Positions 4,260 to 27,555 of a stretch of DNA of 64,000 nucleotides are shown here, piece by piece. The stretch is taken from the NCBI RefSeq assembly GCF_050920415.1, contig NZ_CP169309.1. One strand, written 5' to 3'. Position 1 is the stretch's first letter, and each line of letters begins with the position of its first letter. The notes below the pieces were generated by a model. It was not told where the DNA came from, did no database searches, and was given only the letters and a program-made list of their open reading frames with translations. The position numbers were made by a program, and so were the translations under genes. This DNA is from Escherichia coli. Lineage in GTDB: Bacteria > Pseudomonadota > Gammaproteobacteria > Enterobacterales > Enterobacteriaceae.

Positions 4260-5330
4260 ATGTTTTTAGCATCATTGTTGAGACGTATTGCATTTAGTTA
4301 CTACGATTATAAAGCTAATAATTTCAATATTGAAAAAACAGAGTTTGTTGTCATCCATATTCCCGATCAGATTGGCGATGCTATGGCTATCTTTCCAGTG
4401 ATTCGGGCGCTTGAATTGCATAAAATCAAGCATCTTTTAATTGTTACTTCGACAATTAATTTAGAAGTCTTTAATGCGCTCAAACTTGAACATACTAAAT
4501 TAACATTAGTCACAATGACTATGCAGGATCACGCAACATTAAAAGAAATAAAAGATTTAGCGAAGAACATAACACAGCGATACGGTACGCCGGATCTTTG
4601 TATAGAGGCGATGCGTAAAAAGAACCTGAAAACGATGTTATTTATCAGTCAGTTGAAAGCAAAAACGAATTTTCAGGTTGTCGGTTTAACCATGAAGTGC
4701 TATTCCCCTTTGTGTAAGAACGCCTCCCGGATGGATCAACATCTCCGGGCTCCCGTACCCATGACATGGGCGTTTATGATGCGTGAAGCGGGTTTTCCTG
4801 CAGTCAGGCCAATATATGAATTACCATTAAGCGAGCAGGTAATAAATGAAGTACGTGAGGAATTGTGCACTTTAGGATCTTACATTGCGCTTAATTTAGA
4901 TGGCAGCGTGCAGGAACGCACATTTTCGTTATCAGTAGCTGAGAAACTCATCGCCAAAATTCAAAGTGATAATGATATGCCAATAGTCATTGTTCATGGA
5001 CCAAAAGGGGAAGATAAAGCCCGGAAATTAGCGGGTTGTTATAATAATGTCTACCGGCTATCCTTATCACCCTCGATTAAACGTTCAGCAGCAATCATAA
5101 AAGATGCTTATATCGCAATAACCCCTGATACCTCAATATTACATATGGCAAGTGCCTATAATACCCCCGTCGTTGCAATTTATGCTGATTACAAAACGCG
5201 GTGGCCTGCGATGGCAGATATCTCGGAGTCAGTGGTCGTTGGGCAAAAAATTGATCATATAAGTTTGGATGAATTCGGAAAGGCGCTAAAAAGTGCTTTG
5301 GAGAGAGTATGTGTCAGTACTTACGTATAG
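4260..5330 (+). CDS. yeeL: Glycosyltransferase family 9 (heptosyltransferase-like) protein, apparently intact
   Basis: Start chosen at MFLASLLRR, preceded by GGGAGG. The C-terminal ITPDTSILHMASAYNTPVVAIY motif is typical of GT9. This is the K-12 yeeL position, where the gene is a pseudogene. Confidence 0.75.
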   Translation: MFLASLLRRIAFSYYDYKANNFNIEKTEFVVIHIPDQIGDAMAIFPVIRALELHKIKHLLIVTSTINLEVFNALKLEHTKLTLVTMTMQDHATLKEIKDLAKNITQRYGTPDLCIEAMRKKNLKTMLFISQLKAKTNFQVVGLTMKCYSPLCKNASRMDQHLRAPVPMTWAFMMREAGFPAVRPIYELPLSEQVINEVREELCTLGSYIALNLDGSVQERTFSLSVAEKLIAKIQSDNDMPIVIVHGPKGEDKARKLAGCYNNVYRLSLSPSIKRSAAIIKDAYIAITPDTSILHMASAYNTPVVAIYADYKTRWPAMADISESVVVGQKIDHISLDEFGKALKSALERVCVSTYV

Positions 5331-5706: not shown

Positions 5707-13695
<7,989 letters not shown>

Positions 13696-14108
13696 GCTTA
13701 CCTTCCCTGAACGAGCTAACATAAATGCGCCCTTTCTAGCACAGCGAAAAAATATAAATCCTGATAGCAATATGATTGAAAATTAATAACTTTTCGTTAA
13801 GCAGTTTTGGGTGTGAGTTGCAAGAGGGGAGACTACTGAATAACTCAGTTTAATAATTGAGGGGGCAATGGTGACGAATATAGGGACGGAGTAGAGAAGA
13901 TAGTGCTGAACTCTTTGCCAGCAGAAGGTTATGTGGCACAAAAATAACCGTAACTTCTCACTCTCGACAGGAAAGCTGTAGACGGCGTCCATAACAAAAC
14001 GCCCCCAACCATAAGGTCGAGGGCGCTTAAGATGACAAACCCGCTCTTCGTTAAAGAATCAATGCTTAATGTAGATGAGTTGCATTGCACGATAAAAGCG
14101 AATTTTTA

Positions 14109-14129
14109 GAATTTGGCTCCTCTGACTGG
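14109..14129. repeat. Distal att-like direct repeat (partial tRNA-Asn 3' end)
   Basis: Identical 21-mer to 22382-22402. 16 nt correspond to the asnT 3' end. Confidence 0.85.
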
Positions 14130-14462
14130 GATCGCCGTAGCCATTAACAGGCTGATTGGTAAAGCTAAAAAAATTTGAGTTTGTCAAGACCACCAGAATG
14201 ACCACCATTTTAAAGTAACATTTGAAGTTTACTCAGTAGCACCTTTAGCTTCACTTACAATCAATTAACCTGTGAAGATAGCTGTACCTACAATCGCAAT
14301 AACTTATTACAGATCCGACGACAAACATCACCTGTTATCCACTCTGGCACTACCGTGCATGATAATCAATAAGTCGGGTGCTGGCTTGCAAGGCAATTGC
14401 GTTGTAATGTACCAAATCCCAGTTCGCCTTCACTCTAAAATGCCCCGACGTTTCGAACGCGT

Positions 14463-15341
14463 TTACGGTAAATAATGCGTGACAATCTGCAGGAACTCAT
14501 CCCGCATCTGGTTGTCGATTTTCGGATTCCATGCCACACCAATGTTCCATATGATCTGCTTTCCCCACAGAGTAATCAGCTTGACTCCTACAGGTAAAAA
14601 ATTCTCGACGCTGGCGGGTAGCAGCGCGAGACCATTCCCTCCGGCTATCAATGCTAGCAGGGAATGAATATCATTCGTCGCAGAGATTGGCTCAATGATG
14701 AGTTCATTATCCCGCAGGAACGCAGTCGTTTGCTCCGCCAGACAAGGGCTGACCGCTGGATCCATGCATAAAATCGGATAGATTGCCAGCGTACGCTGGA
14801 GATCGGTGGGATCAATATCGACGGCTACCGGGACAGCCAACACCAGATTTTCTTTATTTATTAAGCGAGAGGCCAATAATTCTGTTACCGGCATACGAAC
14901 AAAACCAGCATGCAGTTCACCTTCCATCAACATCCTAGCTTGTACGCTGGAGGCAATTTGGCTGATAACAACGTCGCAGTCGGGAAATTTCTGGCGAAAA
15001 GTGTTAATCCAAACTGGTGTGCTTTTAAACGAAGATATACCAAATCCGAGCACCAGTTTACCCGTACTCCCCTTTTGGATTTCTCTGGCGTAGGTTAAAA
15101 AATCGTGGTGGGATTTCAGCAACTCATAAGCTTTAGCAAACAACTGCCTGCCAACCATCGTCAACACTGCCCCGTGGCGACCACGCAGGAAAAGCTGCCC
15201 TCCGGTCTTCTGTTCGAGCATCTTGATCTGCTTTGAAAGCGCAGGTTGTGTCAGAAATAAAGCTTCTGCAGCTTTATTGTAGTTTCCCTTTTCCGCCAGT
15301 GTCACAAATGCACGCAGCAGCCTTATATCTATTCCTGACAT
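14463..15341 (-). CDS. LysR-family transcriptional regulator
   Basis: 292 aa with an N-terminal wHTH (LRAFVTLAEKGNYNKAAEALFLTQPALSKQIKMLE) and a LysR substrate-binding fold. Divergent from the downstream operon. Confidence 0.88.
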   Translation of the reverse strand: MSGIDIRLLRAFVTLAEKGNYNKAAEALFLTQPALSKQIKMLEQKTGGQLFLRGRHGAVLTMVGRQLFAKAYELLKSHHDFLTYAREIQKGSTGKLVLGFGISSFKSTPVWINTFRQKFPDCDVVISQIASSVQARMLMEGELHAGFVRMPVTELLASRLINKENLVLAVPVAVDIDPTDLQRTLAIYPILCMDPAVSPCLAEQTTAFLRDNELIIEPISATNDIHSLLALIAGGNGLALLPASVENFLPVGVKLITLWGKQIIWNIGVAWNPKIDNQMRDEFLQIVTHYLP

Positions 15342-15396
15342 TTATTGAATCCTGAAAAATTGGAATTATACAAATACTCGCAACAGATGACATGAT

Positions 15397-15414
15397 GCGT
15401 AAAATGATTTACGC
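15397..15414. promoter_or_regulatory. Candidate LysR operator (perfect palindrome)
   Basis: GCGTAAAATGATTTACGC lies in the 226-bp divergent intergenic region between the LysR gene and the operon. Confidence 0.35.
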
Positions 15415-15567
15415 CGAGATCCCCTTGGTTTGTCAAACTCAGAAACGCCATACCTGCTGCTCTTGGTTCTATTTAACACTCACTAATGCGCAGGTTATTT
15501 ATAAAAATTGACCTCATAAATCATTCAAAAACATTAATTATATAAATACAATAAGGATTAAATATTT

Positions 15568-16167
15568 ATGCCAAATATTGCCGTTCTCACTAATGACCTG
15601 CAGTATGAGTTTACCTACAAAATAACACGCTCTCCAGAAATTCTGGCGCAAAAACTCGTCCAGTTTAATCAGTTTCTCGATGGCATTCGCGCTCTGGATC
15701 AATCCATTATCCACCTGCAACTTATCAACGATCCTAATGACCCGGCGGTACAAAAGCGCTATCGCAACCGCGAAGCGGGCATTCCTGCACTAGCTGGTCG
15801 CCCGGAAAACCAGATTATCGATAAAGTATACCGCCCCACAGATCTGGTTGTAGTCAAGGGCAGAGACAGCGGTTTTTTTAATAACGATCTCGACGAAATC
15901 CTCCAGCAACTCGGGGTAAAAACCGTAATCGTTACCGGGTTGCAAACTCATGTTTGCGTGCAGACCACTGCAGCGGATGCCTTCTTTCGCGGCTATAACG
16001 TCTGGGTACCGGGCGACTGCGTGTTCGCTCCTTCGTCCGAAGATACAGAGCGTGCACTCGAGTGGCTTGCCAGCTATTGCGCAACTGTAGCACCTTCTGC
16101 GGAAATTTTATCAATATTGCAAAAACAGAACGATCTGCCTGAGCGCGGCGAAAGGGAAGCATCATGA
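15568..16167 (+). CDS. Isochorismatase/cysteine-hydrolase superfamily protein
   Basis: 199 aa with D-K-C triad context (LTNDLQYEF; VVVKGRDSGFF; VTGLQTHVCVQTTA). AAGGA RBS upstream. The stop overlaps the next start (ATGA). Confidence 0.8.
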   Translation: MPNIAVLTNDLQYEFTYKITRSPEILAQKLVQFNQFLDGIRALDQSIIHLQLINDPNDPAVQKRYRNREAGIPALAGRPENQIIDKVYRPTDLVVVKGRDSGFFNNDLDEILQQLGVKTVIVTGLQTHVCVQTTAADAFFRGYNVWVPGDCVFAPSSEDTERALEWLASYCATVAPSAEILSILQKQNDLPERGEREAS

Positions 16168-17195
16168 GCTTAACCCAGACGCTAAATCATGAAGAGGTCG
16201 TTGTACTGGATCATGGCACCGGGGCGAAATTAAGCCGCGAGTTGGTTGAAAAAATTGCTAGCATTCTCGGTGACACCTATCTGGGCGTGATGGAAGATAG
16301 CGCGGTGCTGGGGTTATCCACCAGGCGAATTGCCTTCACCACCGACTCCTTTGTTGCCACGCCGCTGATTTTCGGCAACGGTGATATTGGCAAAATCGCC
16401 GTATGCGGCACCGTTAACGATCTCGCTGTCAGTGGGGCTCGTCCCCTTTACATCACACTCAGTCTTATTATTGAGGAAGGTATGCCGATGGCTGATCTGG
16501 TCAGAATCATCGAGTCCGTACGTGAAACGGCTCGTGAGGCAGAGGTCAAGATTGTCGCTGGTGATACCAAGGTCGTAGGTAAAGGTGAAGCAGATCGGCT
16601 GTTTATCAATACTGCTGGCATCGGCGTGTTTGAACATCCGCCAGTCTCAGTTAAGAACGTGCGTCCGGGGCAGAAAATAATCCTGAGCGGATATATCGGC
16701 AATCACTCGATTCACCTGCTGTCGATGCGGGAAGGATTGGGGTTCGAGCGAAATATTCTTAGTGATTGCGCACCGCTGAACCACATTATTGACAAACTTA
16801 TCAGCAACATCCCTGAAGGCAAAATAGCGTCAATGCGAGACGTTACGCGCGGTGGGCTGTCCGCTGTTTTACACGAACATGCGCGCGCAACAAATTATCA
16901 GATTCATTTCGACCAGCCATCTTTGCCCATACAGCCGGAAACCGCCATGGCAGCTAATATGCTGGGTGTTGACGTCATTAATCTCGCTAATGAAGGTTGT
17001 TTGTGCCTGTTTGTTGAACCTGAGTATGCTCAGAAGGTACTACATTTGCTGCAGGAGCATCCTGTCGGCAAGCACGCGACAATTATCGGCGAGATCACCG
17101 CTGTCTCGGGTACTGAAGTCTATATGATTGAAGCTGATGGAACACACACAGAAGTCGAGGAATTATATGGCGCAGAATTACCCAGACTCTGTTGA
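16164..17195 (+). CDS. HypE-like (AIR-synthase-related, PurM fold) protein with C-terminal Cys
   Basis: 343 aa, colinear with E. coli HypE (FTTDSFV, GDIGKIAVCGTVNDLAVSGA, GDTKVV, FINTAG, RDVTRGG, NLANEG). It ends ...AELPRLC, compared with HypE ...PRIC. Confidence 0.85.
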   Translation: MSLTQTLNHEEVVVLDHGTGAKLSRELVEKIASILGDTYLGVMEDSAVLGLSTRRIAFTTDSFVATPLIFGNGDIGKIAVCGTVNDLAVSGARPLYITLSLIIEEGMPMADLVRIIESVRETAREAEVKIVAGDTKVVGKGEADRLFINTAGIGVFEHPPVSVKNVRPGQKIILSGYIGNHSIHLLSMREGLGFERNILSDCAPLNHIIDKLISNIPEGKIASMRDVTRGGLSAVLHEHARATNYQIHFDQPSLPIQPETAMAANMLGVDVINLANEGCLCLFVEPEYAQKVLHLLQEHPVGKHATIIGEITAVSGTEVYMIEADGTHTEVEELYGAELPRLC

Positions 17196-19545
17196 GCTTC
17201 ACGAGACGCCGGAAACCCGGCGTTACCGCATCTGTGGGGTCGTTCAGGGCGTTGGATTTCGTCCCTTTGTTCACCGACTGGCCCGCACCTATGGTGCCAC
17301 CGGCTGGGTGTTAAACGATTCAGAAGGCGTGTTGCTTGAGCTGCAGGCATCCGGCACGGTTATTGCCAGAATCATGGACAAACTGGTGACCGAGGCACCA
17401 CCACTGGCAAAAATCATCAGTACGCAGGAAGTTAGCCCAACGGATACCAGAGCGCACTATGAAACGTTCAGCATCCGTAAAAGCCGCGATCATACCAGCA
17501 TGGACACGATTATCCCGCCAGATACCAACGTCTGCAGCGATTGCCTGCGCGAGATAAGCGATCCTGATAATCATCGTTATCGTTACGCTTTCACCAATTG
17601 CACCAATTGTGGGCCGCGCTATTCCATTATTCTTGGTATGCCTTACGATCGTGCCCAGAGCACTATGCGTAAATTCCCTTTATGTCCAACCTGTGAGCGT
17701 GAATACAACGATATTGAGGATCGACGCTATCATGCCCAGCCCAATGCCTGCCCAGTTTGCGGCCCACAGTTGCAACTTACCGATCGACAGGGCACATCCG
17801 TTCACACAGATGATATTGTCAAATTTGCCATTACGAAACTAAAAGAAGGCGGAATTCTTGCAATAAAGAGCCTTGGTGGCTTTCATCTCGTGGCCGATGC
17901 TTGCAATGAGAATGCTGTCAATGAACTTCGGCAACGCAAGCGAAGAGACGCCAAACCTTTTGCAGTGATGGTCGCGGATGTGGAAAGCGCGTCGCGTATT
18001 GCTTTCATCCCCCCCTGTAATCACAAATTGCTGGAAAGCCCGCAGCGTCCCATTGTCTTGTTGTATAAGCGCAACGTCCTGCTGGCGAGTACCGTTGCGC
18101 CACATAATCCGAACATCGGTGTAATGCTGCCTTCAACGCCGCTTCAGCATTTATTGCTGGAAGACCCGTCTCTGCCGATCCTGATTATGACCAGCGGTAA
18201 TATTTCCGGTCATCCGATCGTCTTTGACAACGACATGGCAATTAAGCAACTCGGGAAAATCGCGGATTACTTCATTCTGAATAATCGCGATATTCATACG
18301 CGTGTTGACGATTCGGTGGTCCGCACGGTGTTTCTCAACGACGCCATTACCTCGCAGCTATCGTTTTTGCGCCGCTCCCGCGGTTACGCGCCATACCCTA
18401 TTCATCTACCTTACGCAGTGGATTCCGTTATCGCGCTCGGGGCGGAGCTAAAAAACACGATCAGCATCGGCAAAGGAAAACAGGTTTTTCTGAGCCAGCA
18501 TATTGGCGATCTTAAGAATAACGTGACTTTTAAATCACATATCGAATGTATTGATCATCTTCAAAACCTGCTGAACGTGAAGGCAAATGTCGTGGCCTGC
18601 GATTTGCATCCCTCTTTCCGCTCTACCCGGCATGCGCTGGAGAATTTAGAGCATCAGGTTGTTCAGGTTCAACACCATCACGCGCATATGGCATCCTGCA
18701 TGGCGGAAAATGGCCTGTCAGGTACTACTCTAGGCGTAATTTTTGACGGTACAGGATATGGCACCGACGGCACCATTTGGGGCGGTGAGTTTCTCGTTGG
18801 TGATTTCGAAAAATTCGAGCGTGCAGGATGCTTGCGTTCAATGACCCTGCCCGGAGGCGATCGGGCAGTTAAAGAGCCGCTGCGCGTCGGCATCTCCTTA
18901 CTGGTGGAAACCTTCGGCGAAGATATCAGTACGCTCGCAGTACCAGGCTTGCAGGCGCTCCAGCCTCAGCAGCGCGATATATTCAGTAAAATGGCGACCA
19001 GAAAAATCAACACCACCACGACCAGCAGCATGGGCAGACTATTTGACGGCATCGCCGCGCTGATGGGCGTTTGCACTCAGGTGGAGTACGAAGCCCAGGC
19101 GGCCATTGAACTGGAAGCGCTGCTGCAGTGTAAACTTCATATGACGGCTCCGTTCAGCTACATCATTGCCGATGTCGAGAATAAGCTCGAGGTGGATTAT
19201 CGCCCGATGATAAGGGAACTGGTGCAATGCTTCAGCCAGCCCGGTTTTGATATGGCCGAACTAAGTCGGCGCTTTCACTCTACCATCGTCGACATGATTT
19301 GCGAGGTCTGTAAACGTCTGGTGGCACGCTCAGGCACGCAACAAATTGTCCTGAGCGGCGGCGTGTTCTGCAATGAATTCATCCTCGTTAATTCTCTTAA
19401 CAGTCTGGAGTCTTGTGGATTCCGGCCTTACAGCCATCAGTTAGTTCCGACTAACGATGGTGGTATTTCATTGGGGCAAGTGGTTATTGCTACCGCATAC
19501 ACTCGCGCAACGCGCAATAAAAATCTGGAGAGAGAAAATGCATAG
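17167..19545 (+). CDS. HypF-like carbamoyltransferase (acylphosphatase, 2x Zn-finger, YrdC-like and Kae1-like domains)
   Basis: Start taken at MAQNYPDS. Motifs present: VQGVGFRPFV; CSDC..CTNCGPRYS; CPTC..CPVCGPQL; GGFHLVADA; QHHHAHMASC; DGTGYGTDGTIWGGEF; NDGGISLGQ. It overlaps the hypE-like 3' end by 29 nt. Confidence 0.85.
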   Translation: MAQNYPDSVELHETPETRRYRICGVVQGVGFRPFVHRLARTYGATGWVLNDSEGVLLELQASGTVIARIMDKLVTEAPPLAKIISTQEVSPTDTRAHYETFSIRKSRDHTSMDTIIPPDTNVCSDCLREISDPDNHRYRYAFTNCTNCGPRYSIILGMPYDRAQSTMRKFPLCPTCEREYNDIEDRRYHAQPNACPVCGPQLQLTDRQGTSVHTDDIVKFAITKLKEGGILAIKSLGGFHLVADACNENAVNELRQRKRRDAKPFAVMVADVESASRIAFIPPCNHKLLESPQRPIVLLYKRNVLLASTVAPHNPNIGVMLPSTPLQHLLLEDPSLPILIMTSGNISGHPIVFDNDMAIKQLGKIADYFILNNRDIHTRVDDSVVRTVFLNDAITSQLSFLRRSRGYAPYPIHLPYAVDSVIALGAELKNTISIGKGKQVFLSQHIGDLKNNVTFKSHIECIDHLQNLLNVKANVVACDLHPSFRSTRHALENLEHQVVQVQHHHAHMASCMAENGLSGTTLGVIFDGTGYGTDGTIWGGEFLVGDFEKFERAGCLRSMTLPGGDRAVKEPLRVGISLLVETFGEDISTLAVPGLQALQPQQRDIFSKMATRKINTTTTSSMGRLFDGIAALMGVCTQVEYEAQAAIELEALLQCKLHMTAPFSYIIADVENKLEVDYRPMIRELVQCFSQPGFDMAELSRRFHSTIVDMICEVCKRLVARSGTQQIVLSGGVFCNEFILVNSLNSLESCGFRPYSHQLVPTNDGGISLGQVVIATAYTRATRNKNLERENA

Positions 19546-20278
19546 TTCTGCGAACCGTATTGCCGCTGTTTTATTCGATATGGATGGTGTCCTTATTGAT
19601 TCCAATGCGGTGATTGAGCGCGGCTGGGCTGAAGGCGCACAGATGTTTGGCAAGACGCTAACGGAAGAGGATATCGTCAGGCATATTCACGGACAGCCCG
19701 GCCCGCATACCATTCGCGCCCTGTTCAGCGACCTTTCCCTGGAAGATCAAAAGAAGGTCCAGTCACATATCATCCACGTTGAAAATACCGCTGATTACGA
19801 CCCGATCCCTGGAGTTAGCGAACTTATCCAGGCGTTGCATAAGGCTGGCATCAGTGTGGGGATTGTCACTAGCGGCTGGCGGTCGAAAATCGATCGTATT
19901 ATGGAGATGCTGCAAATCACGCCCTGTATTTCAGTGATTGTCGAACGTGATGATGTCGTGCGCGGCAAGCCTTATCCCGATCCTTATCTGCTTGCCGCAG
20001 AGCGGTTTCATCTTGCACCGTCCAGAACACTGGTCTTTGAGGATTCAAGAAGCGGCGTAACATCTGCTGTTACAGCAGGCGCAATTTGTGTTGGCATCGG
20101 TACAGACAGTCTGAAAGAGTGCGGTGCCGTGCTTGCAATTACAGATTTTCGTAATGTGAAAATCACCTCACAGACAGGCGAAAAAGTAGTGATTGCCTTT
20201 ACTCCAGAGCACCAGATGGAGATGGAAACTCAGAGCTCTCGTAAGAAAACATCCTGTACCACAAGAGAAGAGTGCTAA
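19538..20278 (+). CDS. HAD-IA family phosphatase (beta-phosphoglucomutase-like)
   Basis: Motifs FDMDGVLIDS, VTSG, GKPYPDPY and FEDSRSGV. The ATG lies 8 nt inside the hypF-like 3' end. Confidence 0.8.
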   Translation: MHSSANRIAAVLFDMDGVLIDSNAVIERGWAEGAQMFGKTLTEEDIVRHIHGQPGPHTIRALFSDLSLEDQKKVQSHIIHVENTADYDPIPGVSELIQALHKAGISVGIVTSGWRSKIDRIMEMLQITPCISVIVERDDVVRGKPYPDPYLLAAERFHLAPSRTLVFEDSRSGVTSAVTAGAICVGIGTDSLKECGAVLAITDFRNVKITSQTGEKVVIAFTPEHQMEMETQSSRKKTSCTTREEC

Positions 20279-21471
20279 TGAATATCACACAGAAGGGACG
20301 CTGGGCTGTCACTATGCTATTTTTTATCAATGGCTTCGTCACCGGAGGTTGGGCTGTGCAAATTGCACAGCTTGTACCACGCTTTGGCGTGACCGACAAA
20401 GTGATCGGCCATTTAATTCTGATCTTCGGATTCGGTGCACTAACCATGATGCCCATATCAGGCATTCTGATGGAAAAGATGGGGACACAAATCGTAACGC
20501 GTATTTTTGCCCTTGCAGCCTCCCTGGCATTAATTCCGGTTGGTTTAGCCACCACCCCATTAGTGTTGATGCCAGCGTTATTTGTTCTTGGTGCGATGAT
20601 TGGTGCCATGAATGTAGCGATGAACTCGAATGCCGTGGCGGTGGAGAGATCACTCTCACAAGCGATTTTATCCTCCTGCCATTGCTTCTGGAGTATCGGC
20701 CTATTTGCGGCGGGCTCGATAGGCGGCCATCTTGTTGAACAATTTGGCTTTTTGACGCATATCTTTTTGATTAGTGCCGTGGCCTTAATACTGACGCTGA
20801 TTATCGCTCCGGCCATTTTTAAAGACATACAGACGGTTAAATCCACCAGCAGACAGACCACCCGGTTGCCTCGTTCTCCGGCGATTTATCTGATTGGATT
20901 GATGGCTTTTCTGGCCATGATCCCTGAATGCGCTGTTGTTGACTGGTCGTCACGCTATTTGATTAAAAATCTCAATGCAAAAACAGAAATCGCCAGCCTT
21001 GCCTTCGCCTGCTTTGCTGTAGCAATGGCCTTGTTTCGCTTTATGGGTGACGTGATCCGCAACCGCTTCGGCGCAATATTAATTATACGAATCTCCAGCT
21101 TACTGGCAGGCGCTAGCCTATTGTTGAGCGCACTGGCACACAATCCCTGGCAGGCGATCTGCGCATTTACCTTAGCGGGAATCGGCATCGCCAACCTTGT
21201 GCCCATTGTCTTTTCCGCAGCGGGAAATCAGCCCAATATTTCCACCAACACAGGAATGAGCATTGCCACAACCATTGGGTATTTAGGCACGCTAATGGCC
21301 CCTGCGCCTATTGGCTATATTGCGGAAATAACCGGTTTTCCAGTGGTTTATTGCGGACTAGCTTTCATGTCGGGAATTATCTTTTTGCTGGCACCACTGG
21401 TTCGGGGGGCAGAAATCTCTGTACAGCGGCAGCGAGCCTCAAACAAACACCAGAATACCGGAGCGTTGTAA
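20278..21471 (+). CDS. MFS transporter
   Basis: ~397 aa and highly hydrophobic, with a 12-TM pattern. The ATG overlaps the HAD stop (TAATG). Confidence 0.8.
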   Translation: MNITQKGRWAVTMLFFINGFVTGGWAVQIAQLVPRFGVTDKVIGHLILIFGFGALTMMPISGILMEKMGTQIVTRIFALAASLALIPVGLATTPLVLMPALFVLGAMIGAMNVAMNSNAVAVERSLSQAILSSCHCFWSIGLFAAGSIGGHLVEQFGFLTHIFLISAVALILTLIIAPAIFKDIQTVKSTSRQTTRLPRSPAIYLIGLMAFLAMIPECAVVDWSSRYLIKNLNAKTEIASLAFACFAVAMALFRFMGDVIRNRFGAILIIRISSLLAGASLLLSALAHNPWQAICAFTLAGIGIANLVPIVFSAAGNQPNISTNTGMSIATTIGYLGTLMAPAPIGYIAEITGFPVVYCGLAFMSGIIFLLAPLVRGAEISVQRQRASNKHQNTGAL

Positions 21472-21922
21472 TTTCTGCCTGGCAAATACTGTGAAACGCT
21501 GACGCAAATTTTACTTTCCTGCGTATTGTCATCACAGGCCGTACAGACAGTGCGCGGTCTGTTGGCGGATCTGCCTGGTATTTTGCCGATGAACTGAGGG
21601 CGTCCTGCGGGATACGTATCGCCAGGGGCGTGAAACTAATTGATGAGGTGGCGGCATGATGCCGGCGGACTAGCATATCTGCCTTTCGCCGCCTGACATG
21701 TCCTTTGGGGCCGCTGTCAGTTCAGAGTAAAGGAGAAAAAGATCGATACCGAGGGGGGGCACGACGCCCCGGAGACACCCCTGTTTCGTCAGACAGTCTG
21801 TACCGCGTACAGCCTGAAACTCCCTAAACCTCAACAAACTGCCACTTCGACGTGAAGGTATCGTTCTGGCGCAGCCAAAAAGCACATGCCGGAGACTGTT
21901 TTTTTGGTTGTAGAGGGTAGTC

Positions 21923-22054
21923 ATGAGCAAATTAAGTAGTGAAATGAAGGCCCTGACGAAGAAAGCAGGCGGCAGCTTCAAAACGGTAAATGACCGTATC
22001 CATATTACAAAACGGTTCAGTGAGCATTTACGCGAACTGAACATCCAGATCCGG
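21923..22054 (+). pseudogene. N-terminal fragment (~44 codons) of a tyrosine-recombinase/integrase gene
   Basis: MSKLSSEMKALTKKAGGSFKTVNDRIHITKRFSEHLRELNIQIR resembles the N-termini of an enterobacterial island integrase family as I remember it. The reading frame loses sense after 22054. Confidence 0.45.
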
Positions 22055-22225
22055 CGGGTATGCGCCAAGACTGACTCTGGATTCTTTTCCGTTGAAACGA
22101 TATTTGAGATACCAGATGCGTGAACCGCCCGGATTGACGAGCAGATACAGACCGTGAGAGTCGGAGAGTTTTACCGGACGGGAAGAGGTTTTTAACTTGC
22201 GGATTTTAGAATCGTTTAAAGACAT
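22028..22225 (-). pseudogene. P4-type integrase, N-terminal fragment only
   Basis: MSLNDSKIRKLKTSSRPVKLSDSHGLYLLVNPGGSRIWYLKYRFNGKESRVSLGAYP is the typical P4-like Int N-terminus. Homology ends near 22055 and the catalytic domain is absent. It lies adjacent to asnT. Confidence 0.8.
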
Positions 22226-22386
22226 TTGGGGGTCACTCCAGAATCGAACCAAACTGACCCCAGATCTGACCACCAAATTATCCCGATGCGGAGAGAAAAC
22301 CAGATACGCACCGGGGAGGATTTTCACGCTAACTTACTGAACCGTAAACAAATAGAGATGTACAGATAAGCATGAAAACTTGAATT

Positions 22387-22462
22387 TGGCTCCTCTGACT
22401 GGACTCGAACCAGTGACATACGGATTAACAGTCCGCCGTTCTACCGACTGAACTACAGAGGA
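22387..22462 (-). tRNA. asnT: tRNA-Asn (GUU)
   Basis: The reverse complement reads TCCTCTGTAGTTCAGTCGGTAGAACGGCGGACTGTTAATCCGTATGTCACTGGTTCGAGTCCAGTCAGAGGAGCCA, 76 nt with CCA. Confidence 0.95.
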
Positions 22463-23453: not shown

Positions 23454-23543
23454 GGAGAGATGCCGGAGCGGCTGAACGGACCGGTCTCGAAAACCGGAGT
23501 AGGGGCAACTCTACCGGGGGTTCAAATCCCCCTCTCTCCGCCA
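23454..23543 (+). tRNA. serU: tRNA-Ser (CGA)
   Basis: GGAGAGATGCCGGAGCGGCTGAACGGACCGGTCTCGAAAACCGG...GGTTCAAATCCCCCTCTCTCCGCCA, 90 nt with a long variable arm. Confidence 0.93.
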
Positions 23544-25705: not shown

Positions 25706-25845
25706 ATGACGAAATGCAATAACTCTTAGGAAACAAGAGCATAGTTTTCTCAGGTGTATTTACCTATCTTATTGAAATGAAATAAATTATGTCGATGATT
25801 TGAGGTTGATGACAAACGAAACATAACTTGATGCGATCTGTGTGG

Positions 25846-25875
25846 GCCGGATAAGGCGCTCACACCGCATCCGGC
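25846..25875. repeat. REP (repetitive extragenic palindrome) element
   Basis: GCCGGATAAGGCGCTCACACCGCATCCGGC, the classic E. coli REP consensus, between msrQ and zinT. Confidence 0.8.
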
Positions 25876-25908
25876 AGGGATAACGCGTACTTTGTCGGCA
25901 ATATGAAG

Positions 25909-26544
25909 TTATAGAGATGATTTGTTGTGAACCTGCTTGCGTAATCGGTTGAAAAGGGAAAGTAGCTTTTTATACCGTAAGGCTAAAAGCAGTACAGCCA
26001 GCCCAGCGTAGATGAGTGGCTGCGGTGAAATAATCTTCACTGACCACAGATAATGTATTGGAGCCAGGATCGCGACAAGATAGACGAAGTTATGCAACTG
26101 TTGCCAGTGTTTGCCGAGTTTTCGCTGCATCGCCTGGGTTGAAGTGAACGCTAAAGCAAGCAAAATTACCCAACTAATAATACCTAACGTTAAATAAGGT
26201 CGGGTGATTAACTCCTTGCCTAATAACGCCAGATTATTCACGCCCAGCTCCAGTAATGCGTAACTGGTTAAATGCAGTGTCGCCCAGGCAAAGCACCATA
26301 AGCCTAACAGGCGTCGAGTCCGCATCAATAACGGCTGTTTTGCGTAACGTGCCAGAGGTGTAATTAACAAGGTCGCCAGCAAAAATTTCAGTGCAGTGCG
26401 TCCGGTAAAATGCTGAATATCTTTCACCGGATCGGCTCCTAGTCCACCGTGATTGATCGCCCAGGCAAGCCAGAGCAACGGCAACAATCCGGCAAGATGC
26501 AGGCAAAGTTTTAGCCATGTCACCTGTTTTGCTGTCAGACGCAT
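25909..26544 (-). CDS. msrQ: Methionine sulfoxide reductase heme-binding membrane subunit
   Basis: 211-aa polytopic membrane ORF abutting msrP (YedZ). Confidence 0.9.

Positions 26545-27555
<1,011 letters not shown>

Follow-up and report, generated by a model that had tools for sequence, protein, structure and literature searches.

How a block of 8.3 kb (positions 14109-22402) came to stand between a tRNA-Asn gene and a yeeJ-like adhesin gene, and what the genes that it carries might do, are the questions raised by a locus in Escherichia coli (NCBI RefSeq assembly GCF_050920415.1, contig NZ_CP169309.1). The window analysed is a stretch of 64,000 nucleotides (nt) of this contig, and the block is referred to below as the asnT island. 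Our data indicate, with a probability of about 0.88, that the island arose by site-specific insertion at asnT and that its integrase subsequently decayed while the cargo was kept. An earlier interpretation made from the letters of the DNA (the sequence-only reading) had proposed that site-specific integration delivered cargo other than that of the high-pathogenicity island (HPI); this is supported here and refined: the event appears to be ancestral, and the integrase belongs to a lineage related to, but distinct from, that of the HPI. As an island the locus adds little, being one more occupant of the well-known asn-tRNA hotspot. Its main interest is an uncharacterised, widely conserved cassette of three cargo genes, encoding a cysteine hydrolase, a HypE-like and a HypF-like protein.

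The borders of the island are formed by a 21-bp exact direct repeat, GAATTTGGCTCCTCTGACTGG, present at 14109-14129 and 22382-22402 with zero mismatches. No third copy was found across the window when up to three mismatches were allowed, and 100 dinucleotide-preserving shuffles gave no copy at all. The right copy consists of the last 16 nt of tRNA-Asn and 5 nt of its 3' flank, ARAGORN and Rfam giving the same coordinates for the tRNA, and both the repeat and its overlap with an intact tRNA gene are thus as the sequence-only reading had described them. The loose similarity that it had also seen immediately outside the two repeats is attributable to chance, as the local alignment score of 6 was equalled by 61% of shuffles. 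Two features typical of tRNA-associated islands are present: the tRNA gene at whose 3' end the insertion lies is still intact, and both borders carry direct repeats of the tRNA end. The gene order in the window is yeeJ-like adhesin, island, tRNA-Asn, mtfA, serU, yodB and zinT, with a tRNA-Ser(CGA) at 23454-23543 (ARAGORN), and the tRNA-Asn gene is identified as asnT because the order serU-mtfA-asnT matches that of K-12. In K-12 MG1655 the order is serU-mtfA-asnT-yeeJ with asnT directly adjoining yeeJ, as the sequence-only reading had stated. The sequence to the left of 14109 is the native asnT 3' flank of K-12, and in the alignment with empty sites the host sequence resumes at the distal repeat.

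The empty site was searched for in 5,426 complete E. coli genomes with a 199-nt junction probe built from the window's own flanks, and the junction was contiguous in 2,679 of them. The K-12-like empty site consists of the left flank, one repeat copy and the tRNA body, and in genomes with other occupants at asnT the match begins where the repeat itself starts, at query positions 81-85. The empty-site alleles thus end exactly at the repeat. The cargo itself was found in 15 of the 5,426 genomes and as one left-truncated copy in strain WL297, and is therefore not part of the core genome. None was found on plasmids; a plasmid origin was considered and rejected, the only matches being four weak ones in Salmonella plasmids, which cover about 300 bp of the backbone.

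The same cargo was also looked for at other asn tRNA loci, and in two E. coli genomes it is present (99.5% identical) at asnV, next to nac-cbl. The asnV copy is bounded by GAATCTGGCTCCTCTGACTGG and GAATTTGGCTCCTCTGACTGG, its island-internal end is identical to that of the asnT copy, and beyond its distal repeat follows the native K-12 asnV terminator flank. In Raoultella terrigena the homology to the island starts exactly at the repeat (88% nt identity) and runs through the LysR and hydrolase genes into the hypE-like gene, and the outer flank of this copy is asnV-like. Comparison of the native flanks gives a shared recombination core of 16 nt of the tRNA, CCAGTCAGAGGAGCCA. The repeat at asnT reaches 21 bp because attP (…CCA AATTC AAGTTTT) and the asnT flank (…CCA AATTC TAAAAA) happen to agree for five more bases past this core. 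A second variable segment was observed at the asnV locus of the strains with the asnV copy, in which phosphotransferase system (PTS), rpe, short-chain dehydrogenase/reductase (SDR) and hxlB-type sugar genes lie past the asnV terminator (L003, 1-2426, and L084, 1-8485), where K-12 has ldtA.

The P4-type integrase stub that had been noted beside the tRNA proved to be the N-terminal arm-binding part of a 420-residue integrase (Table 1). An intact integrase adjacent to the tRNA is lacking, with only codons 1-57 left, while relatives carry the full-length gene. The stub is 100% identical to the asnV copy and 98% identical to the intact integrase of locus L004, a relative with other cargo, in which Arm-DNA-bind_3, Phage_int_M and Phage_integrase domains are present. 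The truncation results from the second of two deletions. Compared with the 11.9-kb asnV copy (L003), the first deletion took out 731 bp, and the second junction sits in two convergent recombinase genes, where it fuses 46 codons of an Integrase_1-type gene to the integrase stub; the intact L004 homologue of this second recombinase has the domains PF12834 and PF12835. The deletions removed a helix-turn-helix gene, 363 of the 420 codons of the integrase and the greater part of the second recombinase-like gene. Between both junctions lies an EFASI small-RNA motif, which is also found at 10843-10971 of L003 and 6056-6184 of L004, directly upstream of the Integrase_1-type gene; in the window this downstream gene is truncated, which leaves the motif as an orphan RNA. 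Both its score, which is above the Rfam gathering threshold, and its position upstream of an integrase-type gene place it in the EFASI family.

A 99.1% identical variant, found in a goat isolate, shows this decayed structure as well, as do seven of the eight public contexts shown, the remaining one being the asnV form with a frameshifted integrase. Because all asnT copies examined share the same integrase-destroying deletions, they go back to a single ancestor that had already decayed. Nothing is inserted at the remaining asn tRNA sites of this strain, which contain no related integrase or trans-acting partner, and with its own integrase lost the island is therefore immobile in this strain. 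The integrase module as such is more common, and was found at asn tRNA genes with other cargo in about 500 E. coli genomes, an example being the PAAR/DUF2169/AAA-ATPase set of L004. At 4431-4615 L004 also carries a C4 antisense RNA, its a1/b1 targets and isrK-like RNAs, all of them absent from the window; C4 antisense RNA and isrK-like RNAs are typical of immunity regions of the P1/P7/P4 type. In strain WL297 (L005, 3001-3260) a further deletion removes the distal repeat, LysR, the hydrolase and most of the hypE-like gene and extends into yeeJ, which shows that erosion is ongoing from the left side too.

Taken together, these observations fit a scheme in which the attP site of an integrative element of about 12 kb with a P4-family tyrosine integrase would have recombined with the 3' end of tRNA-Asn within the core CCAGTCAGAGGAGCCA, the identity at asnT running on through AATTC. 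Integration at asnT kept the tRNA intact and duplicated 21 bp, and two later deletions, one of 0.73 kb and one of 2.9 kb with 9-bp microhomologies at its ends, fixed the island in place. The asnT copies would then have spread vertically or by recombination of flanking DNA, with selection preserving a LysR-regulated operon of cysteine hydrolase, HypE-like protein, HypF-like protein, HAD phosphatase and MFS transporter. The site-specific insertion with its precise borders, the use of alternative asn sites, the decay and the selection on the cargo are shown by the data, and that the insertion was made by this integrase is inferred from the anatomy of the locus. A further trace may be present at the left end of the island, where GCCATTAACAGGC (14130-14160), just inside the distal repeat, was observed to resemble the anticodon stem-loop region of tRNA-Asn. 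The 8-mer ATTAACAG is common to the island left end and the tRNA-Asn anticodon loop, a weak likeness (p ~0.04), and GCCATTAACAGGC may be a relic of a longer tRNA-like attP.

In line with its description in the sequence-only reading as non-HPI, the cargo consists of genes for a LysR regulator, the hydrolase, the HypE-like and HypF-like proteins, a HAD hydrolase and an MFS transporter, without ybt, irp or fyuA. All six genes are intact, and the ratios of nonsynonymous to synonymous polymorphism (pN/pS) between island variants are 0.22 and 0.10, which shows that the cargo has been under purifying selection while the mobility module decayed. Among proteins of solved structure, the hydrolase is closest to an N-carbamoylsarcosine-amidase-related protein, to RutB and to biuret hydrolase, and it scores far under every NCBIfam equivalog cutoff. 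The HypE-like protein has the N- and C-terminal AIRS domains and a C-terminal PRxC cysteine, and the HypF-like protein carries all four modules of HypF (acylphosphatase, two zinc fingers, YrdC-like and Kae1-like) with two CxxC-x18-CxxC motifs, so the domain architectures are those of the Hyp proteins. Promoter-like hexamers are present in the control region between LysR and the operon, at 15393-15365 on the minus strand and 15524-15552 on the plus strand. No riboswitch or other known RNA was found upstream of the operon in the Rfam scan, which gave sub-threshold noise only.

Several observations speak against the interpretation given so far, or against parts of it. The GC content across the island (0.43-0.53, and about 49-51% overall) is like that of the flanks and the host, although a deviating composition is a common, but not a strict, feature of islands. 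The cargo was not found together with an intact integrase in complete genomes or public assemblies, the asnV copies being frameshifted, and the pN/pS ratios are based on small counts (20 synonymous versus 14 nonsynonymous, and 15 versus 5). In scans for sigma-70 promoters and terminators the sites were no commoner than in shuffled sequences, so that these scans give little information on the start and end points of transcription. The HypE-like and HypF-like proteins both exceed the NCBIfam HypE/HypF equivalog cutoffs, and because of this they are not separable from maturation factors by sequence alone. Finally, no description of the cassette or of this island was found in full-text literature searches directed at them.

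It is probable that the strain did not acquire the island by integration itself, but inherited or imported it in the already decayed form, either vertically or through homologous recombination in the flanking yeeJ and mtfA regions, all asnT copies going back to one ancestral integration. The integrase-destroying deletions are shared by every asnT copy examined, including the 99.1% variant, and the long yeeJ-type allele (2,662-2,687 amino acids) accompanies the island in every asnT context read; moreover, the spread of the HPI in E. coli by recombination of flanking DNA is the stated subject of PMC2606025. The reservation is that an independent origin of identical deletions is improbable only. 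This history refines the account of site-specific insertion followed by integrase decay, and does not oppose it.

Related operons in other genera bear on the question whether the segment was gained at all. In Citrobacter (L066, L067), UBA7338/Pseudescherichia (L007, L009) and Kluyvera (L064) an operon of 68-84% nt identity abuts tRNA-Asn next to yeeO, the hydrolase-HypE-HypF part having been lost in Kluyvera, and neither an integrase nor a distal repeat was found at these loci. The operon appears to be resident or anciently fixed in these genera, and may represent an early insertion at this hotspot that has since become fully domesticated. The resident look of the Citrobacter/Pseudescherichia operon (68% identical, adjoining an asn tRNA but lacking both an integrase and a distal repeat) and the host-like GC content are what favours an ancestral segment lost elsewhere, with a coincidental repeat, but such an origin is barely credible, given the zero chance expectation for the repeat, the seamless empty site in 2,679 genomes with cargo in 15 of 5,426, the occurrence of the same element at another tRNA gene, where the native flank resumes past the repeat, and the integrase remnants.

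The hydrolase, HypE-like and HypF-like genes (the trio, 15568-19545 in the window) are not confined to E. coli. A survey of species-representative genomes with the hydrolase as query gave 60 loci, to which a Burkholderia locus was added by a separate protein homology search (occurrences outside the window: L007-L062 and L066-L071). Synteny of the trio was found in 57 loci, those in which all three genes were detected, and the order hydrolase-HypE-HypF is kept in Enterobacterales, Sorangium, Photobacterium, Hafnia, about 40 actinomycete loci and Burkholderia. A LysR gene joins the trio in the Enterobacterales loci, the Burkholderia locus and two actinomycete loci. The other neighbours vary. In Sorangium they are a giant nonribosomal peptide synthetase (NRPS), an ABC transporter and a glutathione S-transferase (GST); in groups of Streptomyces, an NRPS and Peptidase_C26, or ATP-grasp/LAL ligases, a class-III aminotransferase, an M20 peptidase and a pyridoxal phosphate (PLP) decarboxylase; in Saccharothrix and Amycolatopsis, a DegT aminotransferase, an inositol monophosphatase, a NUDIX protein and a sugar MFS transporter; and in Burkholderia, HAD, SIS, amidohydrolase, MFS and CN_hydrolase proteins.

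Several sequence features are conserved within this family. The HypE C-terminus LPRLC is present in 57 of 59 members and the HypF double zinc finger in 57 of 58, and residues K97, C130 and C171 of the hydrolase are invariant, K97 and C130 having been scored over 61 members in an alignment with trimmed N-termini, which places the catalytic Asp outside the scored region. With the PF00857 fold and the catalytic Lys (K97) and Cys (C130) the hydrolase belongs to the isochorismatase-like group. The island HypE-like and HypF-like proteins are each 39% identical to HypE and HypF of K-12, but at least 55% (HypE-like) and 48% (HypF-like) identical to trio members in other phyla, the range extending up to 80%. 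The maximum identity between canonical and trio HypE is 44%, below the lowest within-trio value of 48%, and the trio HypE and HypF proteins form a clade distinct from the canonical ones.

What the cassette does can be approached by analogy with hydrogenase maturation, in which, as outlined in PMC4506123, carbamoyl phosphate is used to form S-carbamoyl-cysteine, which is converted to S-cyano-cysteine by ATP-dependent dehydration. This two-step chemistry is plausible for the trio because the architectures, the PRxC cysteine of HypE and the zinc fingers of HypF match those of the Hyp system. The HypF-like protein would carbamoylate the C-terminal cysteine of the HypE-like protein, which would turn the attached group into a thiocyanate by dehydration; the cyanyl or carbamoyl unit would then be passed to a small phosphorylated or amine-bearing metabolite, with the cysteine hydrolase helping as transfer or processing partner, after which the HAD enzyme would dephosphorylate the product and the MFS pump export it. 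The recurring phosphatases, sugar-type transporters and aminotransferases near the trio suggest an amine-bearing, possibly phosphorylated substrate. Such a cyanyl/carbamoyl-transfer mechanism, with no link to hydrogenase maturation, is put forward tentatively, its chances being somewhat less than even. With the same caution, the trio could be a hydrogenase-independent cassette that places enzyme-bound thiocyanate or carbamoyl groups onto small molecules and that was recruited repeatedly by natural-product clusters of Actinomycetota, Myxococcota and Pseudomonadota. If this is true, the products might contain, for example, a cyanamide, nitrile, thiocyanate or ureido group, and the E. coli island would be a minimal, genetically tractable cassette of regulator, trio, phosphatase and exporter.

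An operon for catabolism or detoxification would have the opposite direction, the hydrolase and the HAD enzyme processing an imported ureido, carbamoyl, cyanate or nitrile-type compound, with the MFS protein as importer and LysR in control. A LysR regulator together with a transporter is a typical catabolic layout, the solved relatives of the hydrolase cleave carbamoyl-N bonds, and the Burkholderia version adds an amidohydrolase and a CN_hydrolase. However, HypF and HypE consume ATP to build up a chemical group, the carrier cysteine is invariant, as are all modules of HypF, and the NRPS, ATP-grasp ligase and aminotransferase genes around the trio in Sorangium and the actinomycetes are biosynthetic contexts, so that we consider a catabolic role unlikely. 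Less likely still, and indeed improbable, is that the HypE-like and HypF-like proteins are spare maturation factors for [NiFe]-hydrogenase, as their RefSeq names imply. In addition to the scores above the equivalog cutoffs, the retained PRxC cysteine and the best structural-sequence matches, which are genuine HypE proteins, agree with that assignment, but it fits poorly with 39% identity to the host proteins versus 48-80% to trio members in other phyla, or with the constant synteny with a cysteine hydrolase. Furthermore, no homologues of HypA, HypB, HypC, HypD, HycE or HycI were found in the window or in the 66 trio loci (1.36 Mb), the hydrogenase large subunit and the maturation protease thus being absent there.

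Public annotation names these two cargo genes hydrogenase maturation factors, while the fixed partnership with the hydrolase, the clade structure and the gene neighbours argue for a different, undescribed function. If cyanyl or carbamoyl transfer does take place, the cassette would provide a possible biological route to cyano and carbamoyl groups on small molecules, and this chemistry would be easy to test in E. coli, whose version has only five genes. Apart from its cargo, the locus is a clean example of an island domesticated by loss of the integrase, with the cargo still under selection. The features of the island are collected in Table 1.

Table 1. Features of the asnT island and of the adjoining tRNA gene, with window coordinates and the basis of each assignment.
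Feature	Coordinates	Strand	Basis
Distal direct repeat: displaced asnT 3' end (16 nt) + 5 nt	14109..14129	-	Junction of host yeeJ-side flank and island
Island left end, non-coding	14130..14462		Identical in asnV copy, ~88% identical in Raoultella
LysR-family regulator, divergent from operon	14463..15341	-	Pfam HTH_1 + LysR_substrate, RefSeq annotation
Divergent intergenic control region, LysR/operon	15342..15567		Sequence reading
Isochorismatase-family cysteine hydrolase, first trio gene	15568..16167	+	PF00857, E = 3e-32
HypE-like AIR-synthase-fold protein	16164..17195	+	TIGR02124, 415 bits vs cutoff 252; C-terminus PRLC
HypF-like carbamoyltransferase	17167..19545	+	Pfam, TIGR00143, 788 bits
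HAD-IA hydrolase, beta-phosphoglucomutase/sugar-phosphatase type	19538..20278	+	Profile matches
MFS transporter, last operon gene	20278..21471	+	Profile matches
Backbone remnant with first deletion junction (~21683/21684)	21472..21737		BLAST vs L003, junction sequences
EFASI small-RNA motif (Rfam RF02957), intact	21738..21867	+	90.1 bits vs gathering score 51.2, full length
Second-recombinase-like N-terminal fragment, ~46 codons, Phage_int_SAM_2/Integrase_1 type	21923..22060	+	RefSeq pseudogene
Second deletion junction	22047..22059		~2.9 kb lost between 9-bp microhomologies CCAGCGGGT
P4-family integrase stub	22055..22225	-	Residues 1-57 of 420 amino acids; Pfam Arm-DNA-bind_3
attP-derived arm + integrase promoter region	22226..22381	-	Nearly identical in L004, partly conserved with HPI equivalent
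Proximal direct repeat: 16 nt asnT 3' end + 5 nt from attP	22382..22402	-	Exact 21-mer + native-flank comparison
Intact tRNA-Asn(GTT) = asnT	22387..22462	-	ARAGORN + Rfam

Some other loci in the window also differ from K-12 or carry mobile elements. The yeeJ-type gene, which encodes an inverse-autotransporter adhesin (5707-13770, minus strand), is a long allele with an annotated length of 2,662 amino acids and a longest open reading frame of 2,687 amino acids, while K-12 yeeJ has 7,020 bp, or about 2,340 codons. The spacer between yeeJ and asnT (13860-13950) shows a difference of about 90 bp from K-12. A copy of IS2 lies at 25742-26970, between zinT and msrQ, and the segment 33090-36929, between hchA and an ompC-like porin gene, contains transposase remnants, three hypothetical genes and a disrupted IS5; we take this to be the position that the yedS pseudogene occupies in K-12.

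Among known islands the HPI is the most obvious counterpart. At asnT and asnV it likewise has a P4-family integrase directly at the tRNA, the end of which is duplicated as a short direct repeat (PMC7545054), and the arm region upstream of the integrase is partly conserved between both islands. The stub and the HPI integrase of strain PMV-1 share 70% identity and represent distinct integrase lineages, and the HPI has a size of about 30-40 kb versus 8.3 kb here. The backbone described here adds the Integrase_1-type gene and the EFASI RNA, and its integrase is cut to 57 codons. A degenerate HPI was ruled out by this level of integrase identity together with a cargo devoid of ybt, irp and fyuA. 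A review of E. coli islands gives the HPI and pks as the only occupants of asn tRNA genes. Membership in the EARL/ROD21 group, considered in view of the shared target, was also rejected. EARL elements are defined operationally by a BLASTn match to a ROD21-type attL together with the initial 82 nt of the integrase gene (PMC6035254), and the attL and 82 nt of the E. coli member IE3, used as a surrogate probe, matched only 32 nt of the tRNA. The IE3 integrase of E2348/69 is 49% identical to the stub and 52% identical to the full-length L004 integrase, and none of the EARL genes for type-IV pilin, MobA/TraD, recombination directionality factor (RDF), relaxase, H-NS or TIR proteins is among the open reading frames of the island. 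On these comparisons the island is neither an HPI nor an EARL element, and its integrase is of a sister lineage.

The EFASI motif has the placement upstream of an integrase gene that is seen in its family, but the gene that follows it here is truncated. According to the Rfam description as quoted in PMC12370729, members of the family are located upstream of integrase genes and have no known function. With the Hyp system of [NiFe]-hydrogenase maturation the trio has in common the domain architectures, the PRxC carrier cysteine of HypE and the zinc fingers of HypF. The Hyp system needs HypC, HypD and a hydrogenase, none of which is near the trio in the 66 loci, whereas the trio is obligatorily linked to a cysteine hydrolase and set in biosynthetic clusters, and its proteins, about 39-44% identical to the canonical ones, are placed in a separate clade. 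The hydrolase, in turn, shares the fold family and the catalytic Lys and Cys with the isochorismatase-like amidohydrolases, such as N-carbamoylsarcosine amidase, RutB and biuret hydrolase, but it has a second invariant cysteine, C171, and the partnership with HypE and HypF is unique to the trio group.

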